IMG/VR virus record: IMGVR_UViG_3300037089_000251
Span: 32,001-96,000 of that record
Length of the DNA: 64,000 bases
Source: a virus
Strand: one strand, 5' to 3'
Shown here: positions 21,844 to 44,833 of the stretch, piece by piece
How positions within the stretch are numbered: the stretch's first letter is position 1
Layout of the letters: every line of letters starts with the position of its first letter
Program-made: the position numbers and the translations under genes
Notes under the pieces: generated by a model
Told to the model about the DNA's origin: nothing
What the model saw: only the letters and a program-made list of their open reading frames with translations
Databases searched by the model: none

Positions 21844-22215
21844 ATGGCCAGAAAGCATTACACCCAGATGTCCGTGCCCGAGTTGGTGGAGGTGCGGAAC
21901 TATGTAAATGACCTGCGCCTGAGGACTACTCAGCCCCATTACTACAACCGGAAGCAGGAGCGGTCGTTCTCTCAGGGTCAGGTCTACGCTGCCGTCAAGA
22001 TGGGGAAGCTCATCGAGGTCCATAACGACAGGGAGCCGGATATCCGGGCGCTTTTCCGGGACGATACGGGAACTTGCGTGGTCATCGACTTGGGCAGCGG
22101 GGACATCATCACGGTCTACTACAATGACCCCGAGGACAAGCACTTCACCCTCAACAAGGGGTTGTACCGGTGGCAGGTAGACCTGTGCTCGATAGTCATC
22201 GGGCTTAGAAAGTAG
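21844..22215 (+). CDS. Hypothetical protein (DUF4258-like)
   Basis: H...R..ER...VV.D....IITVY pattern. Confidence 0.45.
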   Translation: MARKHYTQMSVPELVEVRNYVNDLRLRTTQPHYYNRKQERSFSQGQVYAAVKMGKLIEVHNDREPDIRALFRDDTGTCVVIDLGSGDIITVYYNDPEDKHFTLNKGLYRWQVDLCSIVIGLRK

Positions 22216-22221
22216 GCAACC

Positions 22222-22548
22222 ATGGGAGCAAAAGCAGCAGTAGCGCCGATAGCGCCGATAGTTATGGAACAGGTCACCTACGACCGCTGGGACCCCGTCT
22301 ACGAGCTTGACATGCGGGGCAAGAAGCCCCCCATCCTTGTCTGGAAGTACGAGGATGCCCCCGAGGAGATAAAGGCGAGGATTATCGCCGAGAACTTCTG
22401 GTTCACCCCCGACTGGGTGGCGCTAAGGCCACCGCAGATAAAGAGCGGGGACATCCCCTGCATGCTGGAGGAAGGCTCCTTCCTCTTCATATCCTCGGGC
22501 ATCGTTGACCTTGAGGACGGCGGGGCCATCTTGGTGGGGAACAAGTAA
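22222..22548 (+). CDS. Hypothetical protein
   Basis: 108-aa ORF in a co-directional run. Confidence 0.55.
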   Translation: MGAKAAVAPIAPIVMEQVTYDRWDPVYELDMRGKKPPILVWKYEDAPEEIKARIIAENFWFTPDWVALRPPQIKSGDIPCMLEEGSFLFISSGIVDLEDGGAILVGNK

Positions 22549-22680
22549 GGAATCTATGAGCATGCTTGCCGACATCCTGCTGTCTCGTATCCTTTGCCTT
22601 GGGGCAAGCATCTAATGTTGGAACTCAGTATTATCGCTTAGACTGGCTTGGCCAGAATCAAACTACATGGAATGGTTAAT

Positions 22681-23268
22681 ATGAGCACCACCTACTACAA
22701 GTCCAAACGGGCATTTGACGTATCCCTCACTCTTTTGGCGATGCTGGCTGGCCTCCCCCTTTTCCTGGTAATCGCTGCCTCCATCTGGATGACCTCCAAG
22801 GGTCCCATCATCTTCCGGCAGAAGCGGGTGGGGTGGAAGGGCAGGGATTTCATGATGTACAAGTTTCGTACCATGAGGCCCGGAACGAGCAGGCGTCTTG
22901 ACCTCGTCACCAAGAACGACCCACGGGTTACGTGGGTGGGAAGGTTCCTCCGGGCGACCCACCTGGACGAGCTTCCTCAGCTTTTCAACGTCCTCAAGGG
23001 GGACATGAGCTTGGTTGGTCCCCGCCCCGAGGAGTACAATCTGGCACAGCACCTCTCCGAGAACATCCCCGGCTATACCGAGGCTCTCGACATGATGCCG
23101 GGTCTGACGGGTCTTTCGCAGCTTTGCGGCCGGGAAAAGGTAAATGCGCTGGGACGTAGGTTCGAGGTGAGGCTCCACAGGTGGTACAGGCGCAATAGAA
23201 GCTTCGCTTATGACGCCCTTTTGGTTCTGGCCACCGTCCCGCACGTGATTTTGCGCCGGGGCGTGTAA
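22681..23268 (+). CDS. Bacterial sugar transferase (monotopic phosphoglycosyl transferase, WcaJ/PglC-like)
   Basis: KRAFD, GPIIFRQKRVG, F.MYKFRTM, DPRVT.VGRFLR, LDELPQLFNVLKGDMSLVGPRP and PGLTGLSQ motifs. Confidence 0.9.
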   Translation: MSTTYYKSKRAFDVSLTLLAMLAGLPLFLVIAASIWMTSKGPIIFRQKRVGWKGRDFMMYKFRTMRPGTSRRLDLVTKNDPRVTWVGRFLRATHLDELPQLFNVLKGDMSLVGPRPEEYNLAQHLSENIPGYTEALDMMPGLTGLSQLCGREKVNALGRRFEVRLHRWYRRNRSFAYDALLVLATVPHVILRRGV

Positions 23269-23457
23269 AATAATTCCGAAAAACACGACTACCGGGAGTA
23301 TTATATGAGTGGAGGGAATCACGGGACACCGAGACACCCTCCATATTATAGCCCACGACTCCTACATTCCCCGGCAAGACCGTGGATGGCACCAAGGGGG
23401 GTCGGAAATTCTGAGGGGGCGGACGCCCGGCGACTGCCCCCTCTTAGAGATTGCACC

Positions 23458-23535
23458 ATGCTGATGAACGTCACCATGCCGCACACACAAACGCAGACCC
23501 AAATTAGGGCTGGCGGCGGAGCCTGCTCGGGATAA
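23458..23535 (+). CDS. Candidate attenuator leader peptide (MLMNVTMPHTQTQTQIRAGGGACSG)
   Basis: Short ORF with tandem Thr/Gln/Ile codons at 23485-23505, overlapping an antiterminator strand; alternative starts at 23464 and 23476. Confidence 0.65.
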   Translation: MLMNVTMPHTQTQTQIRAGGGACSG

Positions 23536-23558
23536 TAAAATCCGAGCCGAGACTCTTC

Positions 23559-23588
23559 AGCCGCCCAAAAGGCGGCTTTCGTGTTTTT
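23559..23588 (+). terminator. Intrinsic terminator of the candidate attenuator
   Basis: AGCCGCC-CAAAA-GGCGGCT followed by TTCGTGTTTTT; its 5' arm can alternatively pair with GGCGGCGGAG at 23512-23521. Confidence 0.75.
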
Positions 23589-23754
23589 AGGGGGGTTATG
23601 GGCAGCGTGAGCTTGACCGAGGTTGACAGGAACGACCCTTGGGATGTATTCTTGGACAAGCACCTTCCCGAGAAGGAAGATACTCAGGAGGCAGGTGCTC
23701 CAAGGCGGGGCGGTATCCGCTTGGTAAAAAGCGGCGGCACCGGGATGCGGAGGC

Positions 23755-24123
23755 ATGATGGCCAAGTTCGAGCAGCATTGCTTCGATTGCAAGGCTATCC
23801 TCGGCAATAGGCATGAGGAAGTCAATCGGTGGATGGACGGGCTGTTCTGGAAGAAGGGACCCGCCCACAGGCGCTTCCGGCACCACATGCACGGGGTCAG
23901 GAAGGCACAGGAGCTTTTCGGTCCCGAGGGAGCCAAGGCAGCCATCGTCCACATCGTCAGGGACATGGGTGCGGTGCCGAGGGAGAGGGACTACGACGAG
24001 GTACCGGAGGGGGTCACGATTTTCCCCACTTTCTGTGCCCCGCCGCTAGGCTTCGACCAGCACTTTGACATGTTTCAAGAGAAGACCGAGGAAGAGATTA
24101 AGAGGATTCTGGGGGAGACGTAA
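23755..24123 (+). CDS. His-rich protein (DUF6915-like)
   Basis: H...VNRWMD...HRRFRHH..G....E.FG...HIVRD pattern; GGAGG RBS. Confidence 0.55.
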   Translation: MMAKFEQHCFDCKAILGNRHEEVNRWMDGLFWKKGPAHRRFRHHMHGVRKAQELFGPEGAKAAIVHIVRDMGAVPRERDYDEVPEGVTIFPTFCAPPLGFDQHFDMFQEKTEEEIKRILGET

Positions 24124-24205
24124 GGGATAGACCATGGGGTTTCCGGGCAGTATTGAGCCGTGCAATGAGGCTCCATAGCCCCCTTTTCCTCCCCCATCAG
24201 GTTTT

Positions 24206-24281
24206 TGGCGGGTAGCTCATCTGGCAGAGCGCAGTCCTGATAAGACTGAGGTGATGGGTTCAACTCCCATACCGCCAACCA
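24206..24281 (+). tRNA. tRNA-Ile(GAT)
   Basis: Cloverleaf; anticodon arm CAGTC-CTGATAA-GACTG; T-loop TTCAACT; encoded CCA; G7:A66 mismatch. Confidence 0.9.
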
Positions 24282-24285
24282 TATT

Positions 24286-24618
24286 ATGGAAAAACGGCTC
24301 CTGTTCTCGCTCACGAAGAGCGATTTCGACTTCGAGACGTTCTGTACGGGAGGCAAGGGAGGACAGCACCGCAATGCCAAGCAGAACGGGGTGCGCTGCA
24401 TCCATCCTCCGTCCGGGGCACGGGCGGAGCACCGTGACGGGCGGGACCAGTACCGTAACAAGCAGGAGGCTTTCCGCAAGTGCGTCGGGTCCCCGGAGTT
24501 CAAGGCATGGCACCGGCTGGAAGTGGCCAGAAGGCTGGGGCAGCTTGGTGACATCGAGCGCAGGGTAGATGAGATGATGCGCTCGGAGAACCTGAAGTTT
24601 GAGTTAGTGGAAGCATAG
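24286..24618 (+). CDS. Stand-alone peptidyl-tRNA hydrolase / release-factor GGQ domain (ArfB/PrfH-like)
   Basis: GGKGGQHRN...GVRCIHPPSG...RDQYRNK.EAF. Confidence 0.85.
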   Translation: MEKRLLFSLTKSDFDFETFCTGGKGGQHRNAKQNGVRCIHPPSGARAEHRDGRDQYRNKQEAFRKCVGSPEFKAWHRLEVARRLGQLGDIERRVDEMMRSENLKFELVEA

Positions 24619-24624
24619 TTTTGT

Positions 24625-24699
24625 GGCACCGTCGTCCAGCGGCTAGGACCTCCGCCCGATTAGCGGAAGACCTCGGTTCGAGTCCGAGCGGGGCTACCA
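24625..24699 (+). tRNA. Atypical tRNA with GAT (Ile) anticodon
   Basis: Anticodon arm TCCGC-CCGATTA-GCGGA (C33, T37); T arm CTCGG-TTCGAGT-CCGAG; A4:G69 mismatch; CCA end. Confidence 0.7.
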
Positions 24700-24702
24700 A
24701 GT

Positions 24703-24812
24703 TTGTGGGGCGGTAGGACTCCGCTTAATCGAGCGAGCCGAGGGAGTGACCCCGGCAGTGTCGTACCTTAAAGTGGCGTACACACGCAAGAATTCAATAG
24801 ACTCGCCCACAA
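24703..24812 (+). ncRNA. Candidate structured ncRNA within the tRNA cassette
   Basis: Closing stem TTGTGG(G)GCG/CGCCCACAA enclosing three internal hairpins; no ORF. Confidence 0.4.
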
Positions 24813-24868
24813 GGTTTAGCTCGCCTGCCATGCGCAGGAGGAGTTGAGGTCGCCTTAGGCGTCCTTTG

Positions 24869-24944
24869 GCCGGTGTAGTTCAGTTGGCAGAACGCACGCC
24901 TCGTAAGCGTGAAGTCGCAGGTTCGATGCCTGTCACCGGCTCCA
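24869..24944 (+). tRNA. tRNA-Thr(CGT)
   Basis: Acceptor GCCGGTG/CACCGGC; anticodon arm CACGC-CTCGTAA-GCGTG; CCA. Confidence 0.92.
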
Positions 24945-24950
24945 TTTTCT

Positions 24951-25025
24951 GCTGCCGTATCACAGTGGTAGTGAGCCTGCTTGGTAAGCAGGAGGTCGCT
25001 GGTTCGAGTCCAGCCGGTAGCTCCA
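24951..25025 (+). tRNA. tRNA-Thr(GGT)
   Basis: Acceptor GCTGCCG/CGGTAGC; anticodon arm CCTGC-TTGGTAA-GCAGG; CCA. Confidence 0.92.
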
Positions 25026-25031
25026 TTTTAA

Positions 25032-25106
25032 GCCTTCGTAGCTCAGTGGCAGAGCGCTTCCTTGGTAAGGAAGAGGTCGTGGGTTCGATTCCCACCTTCG
25101 GCTCCA
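25032..25106 (+). tRNA. tRNA-Thr(GGT) with three acceptor-stem mismatches
   Basis: Anticodon arm CTTCC-TTGGTAA-GGAAG; acceptor GCCTTCG vs CTTCGGC; CCA. Confidence 0.8.
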
Positions 25107-25110
25107 TTTG

Positions 25111-25185
25111 GTCGGTGTAGCTCAGTTGCAGAGCGCCGGTCCCGTAAACCGGAGGTCGGGGGTTCAAAACCCCTCATCGGCTCCA
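25111..25185 (+). tRNA. tRNA-Thr(CGT), atypical (C33)
   Basis: Anticodon arm CCGGT-CCCGTAA-ACCGG; T-loop TTCAAAA; CCA. Confidence 0.8.
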
Positions 25186-25198
25186 TCTTGAGGTTATC

Positions 25199-25408
25199 AT
25201 GTGGCGTCAGGGAAGATTTCGGAAGACGAACGATGGCCAAGCCCCACGCTTCACCTATATGATATGCTGGGTGGAGGACAGGGCAGCCCTGAAGGTCGGG
25301 AAGTTCGTTAACTTCAAGGATGTCGAGGGTCTGTGGGAGGTCACTTGGCTATCGACCATAACCAGCAAGACCCGCCCCCGTCAGACCTGGCATGTCGGGG
25401 GACTATAA
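25199..25408 (+). CDS. Small hypothetical protein inside the tRNA cassette
   Basis: GAGG RBS; 69 aa that fill the gap between two tRNAs. Confidence 0.55.
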   Translation: MWRQGRFRKTNDGQAPRFTYMICWVEDRAALKVGKFVNFKDVEGLWEVTWLSTITSKTRPRQTWHVGGL

Positions 25409-25412
25409 GTTT

Positions 25413-25497
25413 GCTACCGTGGCTCAGCGGCGACAGCACCGGTTTTGTAAACCGGCAGAGAAATCTCACAGCGGTTCGAGTCCGCTCGGTAGCTCCA
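25413..25497 (+). tRNA. tRNA-Thr(TGT) with long variable arm
   Basis: Acceptor GCTACCG/CGGTAGC; anticodon arm CCGGT-TTTGTAA-ACCGG; extra arm GAGA-AA-TCTC; CCA. Confidence 0.8.
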
Positions 25498-25553
25498 GTT
25501 TGTGGTTGCCATCTGCATGGTTTATGATGCGTCTGGCAACCAAGTAAGGTTGT

Positions 25554-25629
25554 TCCGGGGTCACTTCTAACGGTAGGAAACTGGGCTTTGAACCCAGGAA
25601 TGGGGGTTCGACTCCCTCCCCCGGAACCA
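25554..25629 (+). tRNA. tRNA-Gln(TTG)
   Basis: Acceptor TCCGGGG/CCCCGGA; anticodon arm CTGGG-CTTTGAA-CCCAG; CCA. Confidence 0.9.
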
Positions 25630-25636
25630 AGATTGT

Positions 25637-25710
25637 TCCAGAGTCGTCTAACGTAGGATGCCGCTCTTTGAAAGCGTGCGATGGGGGTTCGATTCCACCC
25701 TCTGGAACCA
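25637..25710 (+). tRNA. tRNA-Gln(TTG)
   Basis: Acceptor TCCAGAG/CTCTGGA; anticodon loop CTTTGAA; CCA. Confidence 0.85.
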
Positions 25711-25785
25711 AAGTTAAAGTCCATTATACGACACCTTAAGTTTTCCCGAAAAATCAGTTCTGGCCACGGTATTATGACTTGCAGT

Positions 25786-25856
25786 GCTGAGGCTATGGGG
25801 GCGCTTCCTTCTAAATTGACTCATACTCAAACCCTAGCTCCCCCGGTTTCCTCAGC
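25786..25856 (+). ncRNA. Repeated small structured RNA, copy 1
   Basis: Outer stem GCTGAGG/CCTCAGC; inner stem GGGGG-c-GCT/AGC-t-CCCCC; conserved TCCTTCTA loop. Confidence 0.65.
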
Positions 25857-25892
25857 GTAATTTTTGGATTTACCCGGTATTCTATAAGTGGT

Positions 25893-25955
25893 GGCTGGCT
25901 ATGGGGGCGCTTCCTTCTATTCCTTTGGCGAAAATAGCTCTCCTGATTTCCAGCC
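25893..25955 (+). ncRNA. Repeated small structured RNA, copy 2
   Basis: Outer stem GGCTGG/CCAGCC; same CTAT and GATTT internal loop and TCCTTCTA loop. Confidence 0.65.
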
Positions 25956-26045
25956 CCGTTCTCATCCCAGTTCCTAGTGATTAGTCCGCATCAAGGTCAC
26001 GGTTGCTACAGCCGAGGCATAGCCTCGTGCCCGAGGAGGCTGAAA

Positions 26046-28238
26046 ATGGAGAACAAGAAGCTGAACACCATACTGATTCGCCGCAAGGGACTCGTGTTGG
26101 TCCCGGATGCGACTACGCCGTTCCCCACTGGGGCTGATGCCGTCGTTCATCGTGACCGCATGAAGACCCTTCTCGCCACCTTCAACCGGAACCTTCAGGA
26201 CATCGGCTACACCCTGTCGGCGAAGCTCATCAAGGCACTCTGCCTTGCGGACGAGCGCTATGCCCTCAACACCATGAAGTCCATCCTTGAAATCGTCAAG
26301 GAACTCGGCGGCGTCAAGCACTATTACCCGATGTACCCGAACTTCCCCGAGCAGGTCATCCAGATGGAGGAGGCGGAGCTTTACCTGAACGCCGTCTTCC
26401 ACTACTTCTCCGACTGGCTCGCCGATATCTCGGGCGACCGGGACTACATCTGGATGCCCCGCTACCACAAGGACCACCGGGAGCCGCTGCACGAGAAGGT
26501 CAAGCTGCGTGTGCTCGACCTCGGCACCGAAGATTATGTGAACACCCTGGCGACCCAGCTTGCCACCGCCAATACCTCCCTGTCGCCGACCGACAAGGCA
26601 GACCTGGCAGTCCTCATCGCCGATTTCAGGAAGCTGCCGGAAGGCATCCCCAACAAGGAGAACCTTGCCTTCGTGGCTTCCGTCCTGTTCCAGAGGGTGG
26701 AGGACCTGACCCCGTACTTCAAGACCGCCACCGATGTCCTTCGGCTCGCCACGGCGCTGAGCGAGGGGGACGTGTCCCTTGCCGCCCCGTCGAAGTTCCG
26801 CAAGTTCAAGAGGGTCGAACGGCGCAGGCTGCTTGACCTGATTGACCACTGCGGCAACCTTCAGGAGGACATGCTGCGCTTCGAGGGACGGTGGGTGAAG
26901 CTCTCCGAGCGCCTGCACCCCGGCGACTACTGGGACAAGTACCAGAAGGCGTTCTCGGCGATTCAGGCCATCCGCAACGGGCACACCGACCAGACCTTCC
27001 GCTCCAAGGTGGAGGAGGCTGTCCGGGGCGGGAAGGTTAAGGCTGCCGTCGAGCTTCTGGGGGACCGCCCCGGCGAGTTCGGCCGCCGTCTCGACCACTT
27101 GGTTCGGAAGGCCCGCACCAAGGATGCCAAGGTTGCGGCCATCCAGGGATTCCTTGACGTTGCGTCCGTCGCCTCGACCCCCGTGCTGCTCCAGATGATG
27201 GCGCACTTCGACCACCGTCAGGACGGAACGGACAGGACCATCTTCCCCAAGGGGAACGTGGCCAAGGTCATGAGCATCGACCCTCTCCCGGAGATGGACG
27301 GGGAGCTTTCCAAGCTGGTGTCCCGTGGCATCCGCCGTGTCCTCCGCAAGCGGTTCAGCGAGCTACCGGAGCTTGGGAACGTATACCTCGACCCGGCGCT
27401 CAAGGACTACCTGCTCCCTTTCAGCCAGAGGAGCGCCTCGAAGGCATTGAGGACGCTCGTCCGGGGCAGCCACATCCCGTTCGGATTTTCGGACAAGAAC
27501 ACCATCCGCCTGTTCATCTGGTGGAAGGAGCCGAAGGGGGGGTTGCAGGGGGAGTGGTCCGACCGTGTGGACCTCGACCTGTCGGCGGTCGCCTATGCCG
27601 ATGGCTGGAGGAACTTGGGTGCGGTCGCCTACTACGACTTGCGGAACGACTATGCCCGGCACTCCGGGGACATCACGTCCGCCCCGAAGGGAGCGAGCGA
27701 GTTCATTGACATCGACATCAACAAGGCGCTTGCGGCCGGTGTCCGCTACATCGTCATGAGCGTCAACAGCTACACCGAGCAGAACCTCTGTGACCTTCCT
27801 GAGTGCTATGCCGGTTGGATGCTCCGGGAGAAGCCGCAGTCCGGGGAGGTCTATGACCCTCGTACCCTTGAGGACAAGGTTGACCTCGCCATGCAGGCGA
27901 CGGCGGGAATCCCGCTCATCGCCGACCTGGTGGAGCGCAAGCTCATCTGGTGCGATGCCGCCATGTCGGTAAACCGCTACCGCTGGAACAATGTCGAGAG
28001 CAACAAGGGGACCATCGAGCTTCTCGGCAAGGCTCTGGAGAATGTCACCAAGCCGAGCATCTACGACCTGCTCTACCTGCACGCCAAGGCCCGTGGGACG
28101 CTCGTGGAAGACCGTAAGAAGGCGGATGTGGAGTTCTCCGTCGCCAAGGGCACCCAGTATGACCTTGAGAGGCTTGCCTCCGAGTTCATGGCGGATGCCC
28201 CCAAGGCGATGCCGAAGGCACACACCGCAGCGGCGTAA
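26046..28238 (+). CDS. ROT/TROVE-like repeat protein with C-terminal TerD domain
   Basis: PMYPNFPEQV, TATDVLRLA.ALS.GDVSL, ERLHPG and RPGEFGRRLDHL motifs; TerD-like VDLDLSA...HSGDITSAP.GASEFIDI; GAGGAGG RBS. Confidence 0.75.
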   Translation: MENKKLNTILIRRKGLVLVPDATTPFPTGADAVVHRDRMKTLLATFNRNLQDIGYTLSAKLIKALCLADERYALNTMKSILEIVKELGGVKHYYPMYPNFPEQVIQMEEAELYLNAVFHYFSDWLADISGDRDYIWMPRYHKDHREPLHEKVKLRVLDLGTEDYVNTLATQLATANTSLSPTDKADLAVLIADFRKLPEGIPNKENLAFVASVLFQRVEDLTPYFKTATDVLRLATALSEGDVSLAAPSKFRKFKRVERRRLLDLIDHCGNLQEDMLRFEGRWVKLSERLHPGDYWDKYQKAFSAIQAIRNGHTDQTFRSKVEEAVRGGKVKAAVELLGDRPGEFGRRLDHLVRKARTKDAKVAAIQGFLDVASVASTPVLLQMMAHFDHRQDGTDRTIFPKGNVAKVMSIDPLPEMDGELSKLVSRGIRRVLRKRFSELPELGNVYLDPALKDYLLPFSQRSASKALRTLVRGSHIPFGFSDKNTIRLFIWWKEPKGGLQGEWSDRVDLDLSAVAYADGWRNLGAVAYYDLRNDYARHSGDITSAPKGASEFIDIDINKALAAGVRYIVMSVNSYTEQNLCDLPECYAGWMLREKPQSGEVYDPRTLEDKVDLAMQATAGIPLIADLVERKLIWCDAAMSVNRYRWNNVESNKGTIELLGKALENVTKPSIYDLLYLHAKARGTLVEDRKKADVEFSVAKGTQYDLERLASEFMADAPKAMPKAHTAAA

Positions 28239-42786: not shown

Positions 42787-43419
42787 ATGGTTGTCTACAA
42801 GGGTGAGGACTTATCAGGAAAGTTTTTTGGATATTGGGAAGTTATTAAACCCATACGGGAGGAATATCCGTATAAAGGGGGAAGCAAGTCTCGGTGGGTA
42901 TGGGTGTGCCGTTGTAAGTGTGGAAAAGAAAGACCACAGCGTAGGGAATCTCTTATAAAGGGGTTTACCAAGTCTTGTGGATGCATGGCACTCCTGTTTA
43001 TGCACGAAGCCCGCATAAAGCCTGACCAGCACCGGTTGAAGTGGGCTGCTTACAGGAATTATAAGTCTGCTGCCAAGCGGCGTGGCTATGGTTTTTCTCT
43101 ATCGTTTGATGAGTTCAAGGTTCTGATGGCTTCAGACTGTCATTACTGCGGAATGCCCCCGTCACTAGTCTACAAGGATGATTATCTGGAAAAGGCTTCA
43201 AGTTTTTACAAGGCTCAGGCGAGGGATTTCTTGTACAACGGAGTAGACCGTGTTGATAATCGACTCGGATATACATCGGAAAACTGTGTTGCAGCCTGTG
43301 GTCCCTGCAACCGTTCCAAGCACGCAATGACATTGGAAAATTGGCTGAAGTGGATAAGCAGACTATATGAGTACCAATTTTCAAAAGGAGATAGAAATGC
43401 CCCAAAAGCTCAAGATTAA
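42787..43419 (+). CDS. HNH-type homing endonuclease, paralogue of 16898-17659
   Basis: DLSGK..GYWEV, WVCRCKCG, TKSCGC, CHYCG and NGVDRVDN..GY...NCVAAC..CN.SK; GGAGG upstream. Confidence 0.85.
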   Translation: MVVYKGEDLSGKFFGYWEVIKPIREEYPYKGGSKSRWVWVCRCKCGKERPQRRESLIKGFTKSCGCMALLFMHEARIKPDQHRLKWAAYRNYKSAAKRRGYGFSLSFDEFKVLMASDCHYCGMPPSLVYKDDYLEKASSFYKAQARDFLYNGVDRVDNRLGYTSENCVAACGPCNRSKHAMTLENWLKWISRLYEYQFSKGDRNAPKAQD

Positions 43420-44833
43420 CCCTATTCTCGATACTGATTCCTATAAGCTCTCACACTGGGTTCAGTACCCCCCGGATACGGAGTATGTCTACTCTTATCT
43501 GATGAGTCGGGGTGGATTCTGGAAGAACACCCTGTTCTTTGGGCTTCAGTATACTCTGAAAGCTTATTTTGAGGGCAAGGTTTTTGATAAAAAAGACGTG
43601 GAGCAGGCCGCCGCCGAGTCCTTCAAGCATTTCGGCAATGGCGACGTGTTCAATTACAAGGGCTGGATGCGGCTCCTCAAAAAGCACGGAGGGATACTGC
43701 CCCTGCATGTCCGGGCGGTCCCGGAGGGCATGGTTGTCCCCGTCAAGCACCCCATCATGACTATTCAGAACACTGACAAGGAGTTCCCGTGGCTGACCAA
43801 CTGGGCGGAGACCCGACTACTGAGCGGCACTTGGTACCCCATCACGGTCGGGACGCTCTCTTTTGAAATCAAGCAGGCCATCGGGGCGGACCTCGTGCGC
43901 ACGGGCGACCCCTCGCTCCTGCCCTTCAAGCTGCACGACTTCGGATACCGGGGCGTCTCCTCGCAGGAGACGGCAGCCATCGGCGGGGCTGCCCACCTTG
44001 TCAACTTCATGGGCACCGACACCATGGCTGCCTTGGCGCTCTTGGAGCAGTACTACGATGCCGACATGGCGGGGTTCAGCATCCCGGCTATGGAGCACAG
44101 CACCGTTACCTCGTGGGGCGAGGAGAACGAGGCTGACGCCTACGAGAACATGATTGACAGGTTCCCGAACGGTCTCGTGGCGTGCGTCATCGACTCCTAT
44201 GACCCGCACCGGGCGGTAGCGGAGATATTCGGCGGCAAGCTGCGGGAGAAGATTCTCCGCAGGGGCGGGACGGTCGTCCTGCGCCCCGACTCCGGGGACC
44301 CCTGCGTCGTCATTGAGGACATCTTCAACATCGCCGCCGACAAGTTCGGGTTCGAGACGAACAACAAGGGCTGGAAGGTGCTTCCAAGGCAGATTCGCCT
44401 GATACAGGGTGACGGCGTCAACTACCAGAACATCCTCCGCATCAACTCGCACCTTACCCGTGCGGGCTGGTCGATGGACAACTGGGGCTATGGCATGGGC
44501 GGGGCGCTGCTCCAGCAGCAGAACCGGGACACCATGCGCTTCGCCATCAAGTGCTCCGCCATTAGGCGTGACGGTACTTGGGAGGAGGTCCACAAGACCA
44601 CCATCACCGACCCCTCCAAGGCGAGCATCGGCGGGCGCTTCAACCTGATGCTCACCCCTGACGGGGAGTTCGAGACCTCGCAGGTGGACGACTTCGACGA
44701 CCGCACGTCCATCGGCTGCACCAACCTGCTGGAGACGGTGTTCGAGGACGGAAAGGTCACCCGCCACCAGACGCTCGAACAGATTCGTGCCATCGCCAAG
44801 GAGTACGACCGTTACGACAAAGAGGAGTACTAG
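43397..44833 (+). CDS. nadV: Nicotinamide phosphoribosyltransferase
   Basis: TDSYKLSHW.QYP, LHDFGYRGVSS, SIPA.EHS, DSYD, LRPDSGDP, IQGDG, G.GGALLQ and RDT..FA.KC motifs. Confidence 0.93.
   Translation: MPQKLKINPILDTDSYKLSHWVQYPPDTEYVYSYLMSRGGFWKNTLFFGLQYTLKAYFEGKVFDKKDVEQAAAESFKHFGNGDVFNYKGWMRLLKKHGGILPLHVRAVPEGMVVPVKHPIMTIQNTDKEFPWLTNWAETRLLSGTWYPITVGTLSFEIKQAIGADLVRTGDPSLLPFKLHDFGYRGVSSQETAAIGGAAHLVNFMGTDTMAALALLEQYYDADMAGFSIPAMEHSTVTSWGEENEADAYENMIDRFPNGLVACVIDSYDPHRAVAEIFGGKLREKILRRGGTVVLRPDSGDPCVVIEDIFNIAADKFGFETNNKGWKVLPRQIRLIQGDGVNYQNILRINSHLTRAGWSMDNWGYGMGGALLQQQNRDTMRFAIKCSAIRRDGTWEEVHKTTITDPSKASIGGRFNLMLTPDGEFETSQVDDFDDRTSIGCTNLLETVFEDGKVTRHQTLEQIRAIAKEYDRYDKEEY

Follow-up and report, generated by a model that had tools for sequence, protein, structure and literature searches.

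Candidate ribosome-mediated attenuators whose leader codons match the downstream tRNA arrays of large phages

In the enterobacterial thr (Thr/Ile), ilvGMEDA (Ile/Leu/Val), trp, his, leu and phe leaders, a short leader containing regulatory codons is followed by a terminator. A cassette with the same layout was found before a tRNA gene array in a 64,000-nucleotide stretch of viral DNA (hereafter the window; positions refer to it unless marked otherwise), which comprises bases 32001-96000 of the 104.5-kb, single-contig virus record IMGVR_UViG_3300037089_000251. The pairings predicted for it (region 2 with 3, 3 with 4 and, as a candidate, 1 with 2) are those of the enterobacterial leaders, and the sensing of more than one amino acid, as proposed here, occurs in thr and ilvGMEDA. 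The phage cassette differs in that it would control tRNA genes and not biosynthetic enzymes, and the loop would thus feed back on the sensor's own ligand. Moreover, the leaders of this phage and its relatives sample up to 16 anticodon species and nine amino acids, whereas the enterobacterial leaders repeat one or three amino acids, and, unlike the enterobacterial attenuators, the phage cassettes occur two to four in parallel with a common promoter type. In silico, the locus combines the elements of a leader-peptide attenuator: a short open reading frame (ORF) with a Shine-Dalgarno (SD)-like motif, a codon cluster, a terminator and an antiterminator that excludes it. It falls outside the classical scope of such attenuators, genes that make or charge the sensed amino acid, for the genes behind it are tRNA genes and genes for two small proteins.

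Attenuation of aminoacyl-tRNA synthetase genes occurs in pheST, which is preceded by the pheM leader. As is proposed for the phage cassette, a leader-peptide attenuator acts there on a component of the translation machinery for the sensed amino acid; pheST is, however, a bacterial chromosomal operon for a single-amino-acid synthetase and not a tRNA array. T-box RNAs tie read-through to the state of a specific tRNA, as the cassette would, but they bind uncharged tRNA directly and without translation, whereas the phage sensor would be a translating ribosome. No Rfam match to a T-box or another cis-regulatory RNA was obtained in the interval 22000-27000 at E values up to 1, and weak, sub-threshold matches to YrlA and to a Tymo tRNA-like family in this interval were discarded, being overlaps with the tRNA genes themselves. 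Little has been established about how phages control their tRNA genes, and most accounts regard the arrays as constitutively expressed cargo. Among published systems, the closest functional analogue found is the trn operon of Anabaena sp. PCC 7120, a long accessory tRNA array that is silent and is induced under translational stress (PMC8421152). It is controlled at its promoter, where direct repeats are bound by the RHH repressor TrcR (PMC8421152, PMC10272220); this control is not codon-specific and involves no attenuation, and the words attenuation, leader peptide and terminator are absent from the text of PMC8421152. In the full-text literature searched, which covers few subscription journals, no description was found of tRNA genes, in phages or in bacteria, that are controlled by attenuation or through a leader peptide.

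The Ile/Thr/Gln leader and its array

The cassette follows a sugar-transferase gene that ends at 23268, and is ordered promoter-like element, structured 5' region, leader ORF, terminator and operon. Its elements are listed below.

23276-23306, plus strand: promoter-like element with a -35-like CCGAAA (23276-23281), a 17-nt spacer and a -10-like TATTAT (23299-23304)
23312-23457, plus strand: structured 5' untranslated region of ~145 nt, its start placed from the -10 element
23458-23538, plus strand: leader ORF; ATG at 23458, 25 sense codons (23458-23532), double stop TAATAA at 23533-23538
23478-23482, plus strand: region 1 (GCCGC), the partner of region 2 in the minimum-energy fold of the full-length RNA; its sequence does not vary among seven aligned variants
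23485-23505, plus strand: regulatory codon run Thr-Gln-Thr-Gln-Thr-Gln-Ile (ACA CAA ACG CAG ACC CAA ATT, codons 10-16)
23512-23521, plus strand: region 2, 5' arm of the antiterminator, GGCGGCGGAG, within the 3' part of the leader ORF
23525-23547, plus strand: nested hairpin (23525-23530 paired with 23542-23547) with both stop codons in its loop
23553-23565, plus strand: region 3, 3' arm of the antiterminator, overlapping the 5' arm of the terminator
23559-23588, plus strand: intrinsic terminator with a stem at 23559-23577 (7 bp, six of them G-C), a 5-nt loop and a T-rich tail to 23588

A sequence-only reading of this DNA had proposed the leader ORF with its codon run, the hairpin over the stop codons and the terminator, and all of them were recovered at these positions. 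It had also matched the leader codons with the tRNA genes behind the terminator. These are nine in number and lie between 24206 and 25710 (Ile GAT twice, Thr CGT twice, Thr GGT twice, Thr TGT, Gln TTG twice), and each of the three Thr codons in the run (ACA, ACG, ACC) does have its own Watson-Crick anticodon among them. These nine are the only tRNA genes of the window but not of the genome, in which a second array is found (see below). When 20000 random stretches of 276 nt were drawn from the genome, seven or more consecutive Ile/Thr/Gln codons in any frame were seen in 25, the leader itself counted. The leader uses rare codons: in the long ORFs of this phage CAA accounts for 18% of the Gln codons and ACA for 6% of the Thr codons. 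An SD-like AGAGA is located 10-14 nt 5' of the leader ATG, and the GAGA motif is 3.4-fold enriched upstream of ORF starts in this phage.

The 29-nt core of the promoter-like element has one mismatch to the element that precedes the second tRNA array; the 104.5 kb contain no further close copy, and the second element scores as sigma-70-like (CTGAAA-17-TATTAT). Promoter-like elements are kept upstream of the leaders in relatives as well. At the presumed transcription start there is an inverted repeat, GGAGGG...CCCTCC (23311-23345, plus strand), with TATTATA-like flanking arms, partly conserved in relatives, which might serve as an operator or form a stem at the 5' end. When viral contigs were scanned with the promoter motif, the matches were mainly chance ones in AT-rich phages, and one new cassette was obtained.

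Matched leaders in related phages

Related contigs were retrieved from IMG/VR and from JGI metagenomes using DNA patterns and the DUF6915-like protein encoded in the operon, and eight distinct leader variants, that of the window included, were compared. The contigs stem from samples of peat and soil, and the host is uncultured. All eight have an ORF of 24-25 codons (starting with ATG, in one case with GTG), a motif resembling an SD sequence (of the GAGA or AGG type) 8-14 nt 5' of the start, an invariant 16-nt stretch containing region 2, and the terminator. In the present genome the leader frame stays open upstream to 23305; since two of the variants close it three codons before the conserved start, the ORF of 24-25 codons is taken to be the conserved unit. 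The order of the codons in the run is permuted among the variants, and Thr and Gln codons ending in Ile are kept, with one Ser codon in two variants. Each exchange between Thr and Gln in the run requires at least two base changes. Every variant contains at least one ACA, at least one ACG and at least one ACC or ACT, so that each of the three Thr isoacceptors is represented. An Ile/Thr/Gln(TTG) array follows the leader in seven of the eight variants. In line with the sequence-only reading, the runs thus vary within the cognate set, the Ser codon of two variants apart. The terminator is 100% paired across seven variants, with compensatory changes in two pairs, and one C-G pair of the nested hairpin has become U-A in two variants. 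In the antiterminator 92% of the alignment cells are paired, as against 27-42% after sliding the partner by 1-3 columns. Searches of metagenome contigs and of 185,579 species genomes with core patterns of this leader returned only the same small phage clade, and none of the matches in the bacterial genomes had leader context. A search of isolated-phage DNA gave only tRNAs and one RF-1-domain gene (from an Acidobacteriota phage), and thus no annotated relative.

The same genome contains a second cassette with the same promoter type, located outside the window on the minus strand (genome 594-830; L045:594-830). Its leader is 36 codons long (L045:651-761, minus strand); 17 of 19 consecutive codons specify Gly, Asp, Glu, Ala, Val or Cys. 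The terminator of this cassette, confirmed by a terminator-finding tool, lies ~20 nt before the first tRNA gene. The array (genome 121-581, minus strand) consists of Val TAC, Val CAC, Gly GCC and Ala TGC and is clipped by the end of the contig. From the Asp, Glu, Cys, GGA, GCC and GTC codons of the leader it is predicted that the lost part encodes tRNAs for Asp, Glu, Cys, Gly TCC, Ala GGC and Val GAC, as it does in relatives.

A relative of 317 kb (IMGVR_UViG_3300041809_000571, estimated to be 99% complete) has 62 tRNA genes (L056-L059). They are distributed in four main blocks, which jointly cover all 20 amino acids and each have a matched leader of their own:

L039:3863-3937: leader before the Ile/Thr/Gln(TTG) array
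L047:1475-1630, minus strand: leader before the Val/Gly/Ala/Asp/Glu/Cys array
L056:2078-2170: leader before the Tyr/Leu/Ser array
L057:1556-1645: leader before the His/Arg/Asn/Lys/Phe/Met/Pro/Gln(CTG)/Trp array

Glutamine is the only amino acid divided between blocks, and the division is by anticodon, with CAA in the leader of the Gln(TTG) array and CAG in that of the Gln(CTG) array. Allowing for standard wobble, a cognate leader codon exists for every anticodon species of the leader's own array (5/5, 12/12, 9/9 and 16/16), whereas coverage of the other three arrays ranges from 0 to 80%. In equally long segments of real ORFs, full coverage has a probability of 0.07, 0.002, 0.006 and <1e-5 for the four cassettes, the product being <1e-11. 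The longest runs of in-set codons (7, 11, 13 and 17) occur with frequencies of ~1e-3, 1.5e-2, <5e-5 and <5e-5 in 20000 random genome segments. Further copies of the leader types, found in L046, L157, L143, L146 and L142, show indels and reshuffling within the runs with the composition kept. The peptides of different cassettes have no common sequence; all that they share is that the residues of each correspond to the amino acids of its array. Terminators were identified in the other cassettes as well, and in the family of the second leader the distal stem of the terminator is wholly different among relatives yet paired, while conservation is seen in the proximal part, which also pairs with region 2. 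The distance from the terminator tail to the first tRNA gene is 8-25 nt in three of the four cassette types. As this leaves no room for a further promoter, these arrays would be reachable by read-through only.

Some other loci deserve mention. In G010 (L146:1040-1590) an insertion of ~350 nt separates the attenuator of the His/Arg/Asn... type from tRNA-His; the leader is undisturbed, and what remains of a second terminator tail adjoins tRNA-His. In G009 a promoter match of the TTGACA type, a 21-codon ORF and a strong terminator precede a Lys/Arg/Val/Gly array (L011, reverse complement 1565-1720). About half of the codons match, and this candidate, which is either a degenerate or an unrelated cassette, was not counted. 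The Tyr/Leu/Ser-type leader of G009 has two Cys codons, and a tRNA-Cys is present in its array; as the two codons form part of the structural region 2, this match was not used as evidence. A tRNA with a CTA anticodon, called 'Pyl' by ARAGORN, is present at related loci with the RF-1 gene (L002, L003 ~6295) and in another large phage (L148:973-1048); judged by its anticodon, it is a candidate amber suppressor within phage tRNA arrays.

Alternative pairings, proposed mechanism and competing explanations

With the 3' arm of the terminator excluded, the minimum-energy fold of the leader is the antiterminator, 23512-23521 paired with 23553-23565, as the sequence-only reading had anticipated. The fold check proposed along with it gave terminator and antiterminator states that are mutually exclusive, the 5' arm of the terminator being sequestered with a probability of 0.84 before the 3' arm is transcribed. 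The duplex between regions 2 and 3 has an energy of ~ -28 kcal/mol. At full length the minimum-energy fold comprises a 5-bp helix (23478-23482/23513-23517) with an inner helix, the nested hairpin and the terminator. The 1:2 helix and the terminator occur together in the full-length minimum-energy folds of five out of six leaders, in a method that does not extend to folding kinetics, and these folds make region 1 a candidate anti-antiterminator or pause helix. A pairing that competes for the 5' arm of the terminator is present in 16/16 leader sequences from 12 contigs, with the partner always in the 3' part of the ORF; the antiterminator duplexes range from -14 to -29 kcal/mol, compared with -13 to -21 for the terminators.

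The effect of a ribosome was modelled for each codon of six leaders, using a footprint that extended 15 nt to the 5' side and 12 nt to the 3' side of the A-site codon. In all six, the 5' arm of the terminator is sequestered with a probability of 0.83-1.0 if the ribosome is absent or is located on or before the cognate run, and with one of only ~0.2-0.6 if the modelled ribosome is beyond the run, the switch taking place a few codons at most from where the run ends. In each of these leaders region 2 begins shortly after the cognate codons. Since a lagging ribosome spares region 2 and an advancing one covers it, stalling is predicted to cause read-through.

Taking into account the sequence elements, their conservation, the codon and anticodon statistics and the alternative pairings in silico, we consider it likely that a ribosome-mediated attenuator of the trp type, acting through a leader peptide, tunes transcription of the array to the supply of the array's own charged tRNAs. 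The sequence-only reading, in which stalling leads to the antiterminator and to read-through, is thus supported by comparative, statistical and in-silico structural evidence. By its position, the attenuator probably gates the nine tRNAs together with the DUF6915-like protein and a small GGQ release-factor-like protein. In the mechanism that we propose, transcription would start at the promoter-like element near 23299-23304, and the 25-codon leader would be translated by a ribosome. If the Thr/Gln/Ile run is decoded fast, the ribosome would move onto region 2 while the polymerase makes regions 3 and 4, the terminator at 23559-23588 would form and the transcript would stop before the operon. If even one of the aminoacyl-tRNAs that the run tests is in short supply, the ribosome would lag there and region 2 would pair with region 3; in the absence of the terminator, the polymerase would then enter the tRNA genes that decode those same codons. 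The outcome would be a negative feedback that fits the output of each tRNA block to demand.

Several points weigh against this interpretation. We infer that the leader is translated, which promoter and start site are used, in which direction and how strongly the operon responds, and what the physiological trigger is. The leader region is of unremarkable stability by itself (z = -1.7), and covariation in the Ile/Thr/Gln leader is sparse because the key arms are invariant. One of the eight variants (G005; L060, L043) has Ile codons in its leader, and no tRNA-Ile was found on its contig, which is estimated to be 41% complete. A blind scan of ~40 other phage tRNA-array loci gave no further clean case, which speaks against a general design. 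In the ribosome model, a ribosome exactly on the stop codon leaves region 2 unmasked, so the mechanism leans on timing and on steric effects that are beyond the folding program. The truncated transcript without a ribosome favours the antiterminator at equilibrium; termination without translation would therefore require that the weak 1:2 helix form first. Finally, an independent promoter downstream of 23588 had been named in the sequence-only reading as evidence that would contradict it. One sigma-70-like match (TTGACA-18-TATTCT, 23623-23652) does occur there, in an insert of 160 nt that separates the terminator from the DUF6915-like gene, and if active it would allow expression independent of the attenuator. 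The match is situated, however, within a coding frame that is conserved: in the frame 23598-23810, the one relative with the same insert differs from the window only synonymously, which suggests that the segment is coding rather than a promoter, although it may still act as one.

It is scarcely credible, in our view, that the match between ORF and tRNA genes is a coincidence and that the operon is preceded, at 23559-23588, by nothing more than a leaky terminator of constitutive action or an RNA-processing signal. Such an explanation would be compatible with the low folding z-score, and a seven-codon run with p ~1e-3 per stretch sampled is not negligible over the 64 kb scanned, but it does not account for an ORF whose length and codon class are kept in eight variants with permuted order, for five further leader/array pairs that show the same match with different amino-acid sets, or for the very small product of the null probabilities of the four cassettes. 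A leader that senses decoding speed could also serve another output, through opposite polarity, coupling to the DUF6915-like gene, RNA processing or stability, or a functional peptide. The preference of the ribosome-free truncated RNA for the antiterminator makes the default state uncertain, and in the Ile/Thr/Gln cassette of relatives a protein gene starts ~10 nt past the terminator. Against this, in three of the four cassette types a tRNA gene directly follows the attenuator, with no protein gene available for coupling, the cassette peptides lack a common sequence, and the location of region 2 just 3' of the run in all six modelled leaders predicts read-through upon stalling. We regard a different output as very unlikely.

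Two further explanations retain the attenuator and differ in what it reports. One holds that the leader monitors amino-acid supply, that is, charging and not tRNA abundance, as a starvation or stringent-type input placed before tRNA genes. Leader-peptide attenuators such as those of trp, his and thr respond to aminoacyl-tRNA, and low tRNA and low charging are indistinguishable to them. Extra tRNA is no cure for amino-acid starvation, however, so that the loop closes only if the feedback acts on how much tRNA there is, and the match between leader and array reaches the level of isoacceptors and rare codons (CAA versus CAG; ACA, ACG and ACY each present). A charging sensor therefore seems to us quite unlikely. 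The other explanation, which we find somewhat unlikely, keeps the attenuator as described and sees its natural trigger in host defence, anticodon nucleases or tRNA-modifying effectors, to which the replacement tRNAs and a GGQ rescue factor would respond. Phage tRNAs counter tRNA-cleaving defences (retron effectors, PARIS, Septu and Schlafen-type nucleases; e.g. PMC11555353, PMC11464382), the operon includes an RF-1-domain protein, and leaders that sample every isoacceptor of the array would report the loss of any single species. On the other hand, the sequence gives no pointer to defence over ordinary supply and demand, no defence or anti-defence gene was identified adjoining the cassette, and the four cassettes with 62 tRNAs for 20 amino acids in the 317-kb relative resemble general self-supply more than protection against a handful of nuclease targets.

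Genes of the operon and biological implications

The genes behind the terminator are as follows.

23598-23810, plus strand: small ORF, in the 160-nt insert present only here and in one relative
23755-24123, plus strand: DUF6915-like protein (Pfam PF21866, E 1.8e-4, below the curated cut-off)
24206-24281, plus strand: tRNA-Ile (GAT), ARAGORN and Rfam
24286-24618, plus strand: RF-1-domain (GGQ) protein of 110 aa (Pfam PF00472, E 2.5e-10; PHROG 3122)
24625-24699, plus strand: second copy of tRNA-Ile (GAT), ARAGORN and Rfam
24869-25185, plus strand: four tRNA-Thr (CGT, GGT, GGT at 25032-25103, and CGT), ARAGORN and Rfam
25413-25497, plus strand: tRNA-Thr (TGT), ARAGORN and Rfam
25554-25710, plus strand: two tRNA-Gln (TTG), ARAGORN and Rfam

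Eight of the nine tRNAs were found by ARAGORN; the ninth (25032-25103) came from Rfam only, and its GGT anticodon was read off the sequence. The DUF6915-like gene is the first conserved gene 3' of the attenuator, and in relatives it starts ~10 nt past the terminator tail; its clusters in the protein atlas are DUF6915 and for the most part viral. NCBIfam release-factor models cover the GGQ domain only in the 110-aa protein, which by this similarity may be called a small release-factor-like or peptidyl-tRNA-hydrolase-like protein. A 69-codon ORF is also among the operon genes.

Between tRNA-Ile and tRNA-Thr there is a 169-nt spacer (24700-24868, plus strand) for which a closed fold with several branches and a long terminal helix is predicted (-64.5 kcal/mol, z = -2.1). 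No Rfam match was obtained for it; it may represent a small RNA that tRNA processing sets free, or else a degenerate RNA of tRNA-like type. Directly 3' of the array a 753-aa protein is encoded (25977-28238, plus strand), with a promoter-like GGTATTAT motif at ~25745-25775. The protein matches the MXAN_6230/SCO0854 RING-domain family of NCBIfam (E 1.9e-131, below the curated cut-off) and PHROG 33734. Its identity as a TROVE/TerD protein was considered and found unsupported, with no Pfam match and no PDB sequence match. Elsewhere the window contains tail and baseplate genes, a UvrD-type helicase gene and, at 43367-44833 (plus strand), a gene for nicotinamide phosphoribosyltransferase (NAMPT; NAD salvage) with Pfam matches to NAPRTase and NAMPT_N.

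Beyond the attenuator itself, we tentatively raise the possibility that large phages run a closed-loop homeostat of their own tRNA pool, block by block, in which each leader is a 'test-strip' with at least one codon per isoacceptor. If this is true, the loss of one tRNA species, whether caused by host shut-off, by a mismatch in codon usage or by an anticodon nuclease, would switch on the block that replaces it, and the cassettes would be the first attenuators that have their own sensed ligand as output, as well as an inducible counter-defence. The leaders would be compact natural sensors for the availability of single isoacceptors that might be used as reporters, and they suggest a genomic signature for finding more cases, namely a short ORF, with a terminator behind it, that has the same composition as the set of anticodons downstream. 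A textbook bacterial mechanism appears to have been reused in these phages for the control of tRNA genes by the decoding speed of their own codons. If so, this would explain why the arrays are sorted into amino-acid blocks, and phage gene expression would be connected, directly and in a testable way, to the supply of tRNA or to immunity that targets it.

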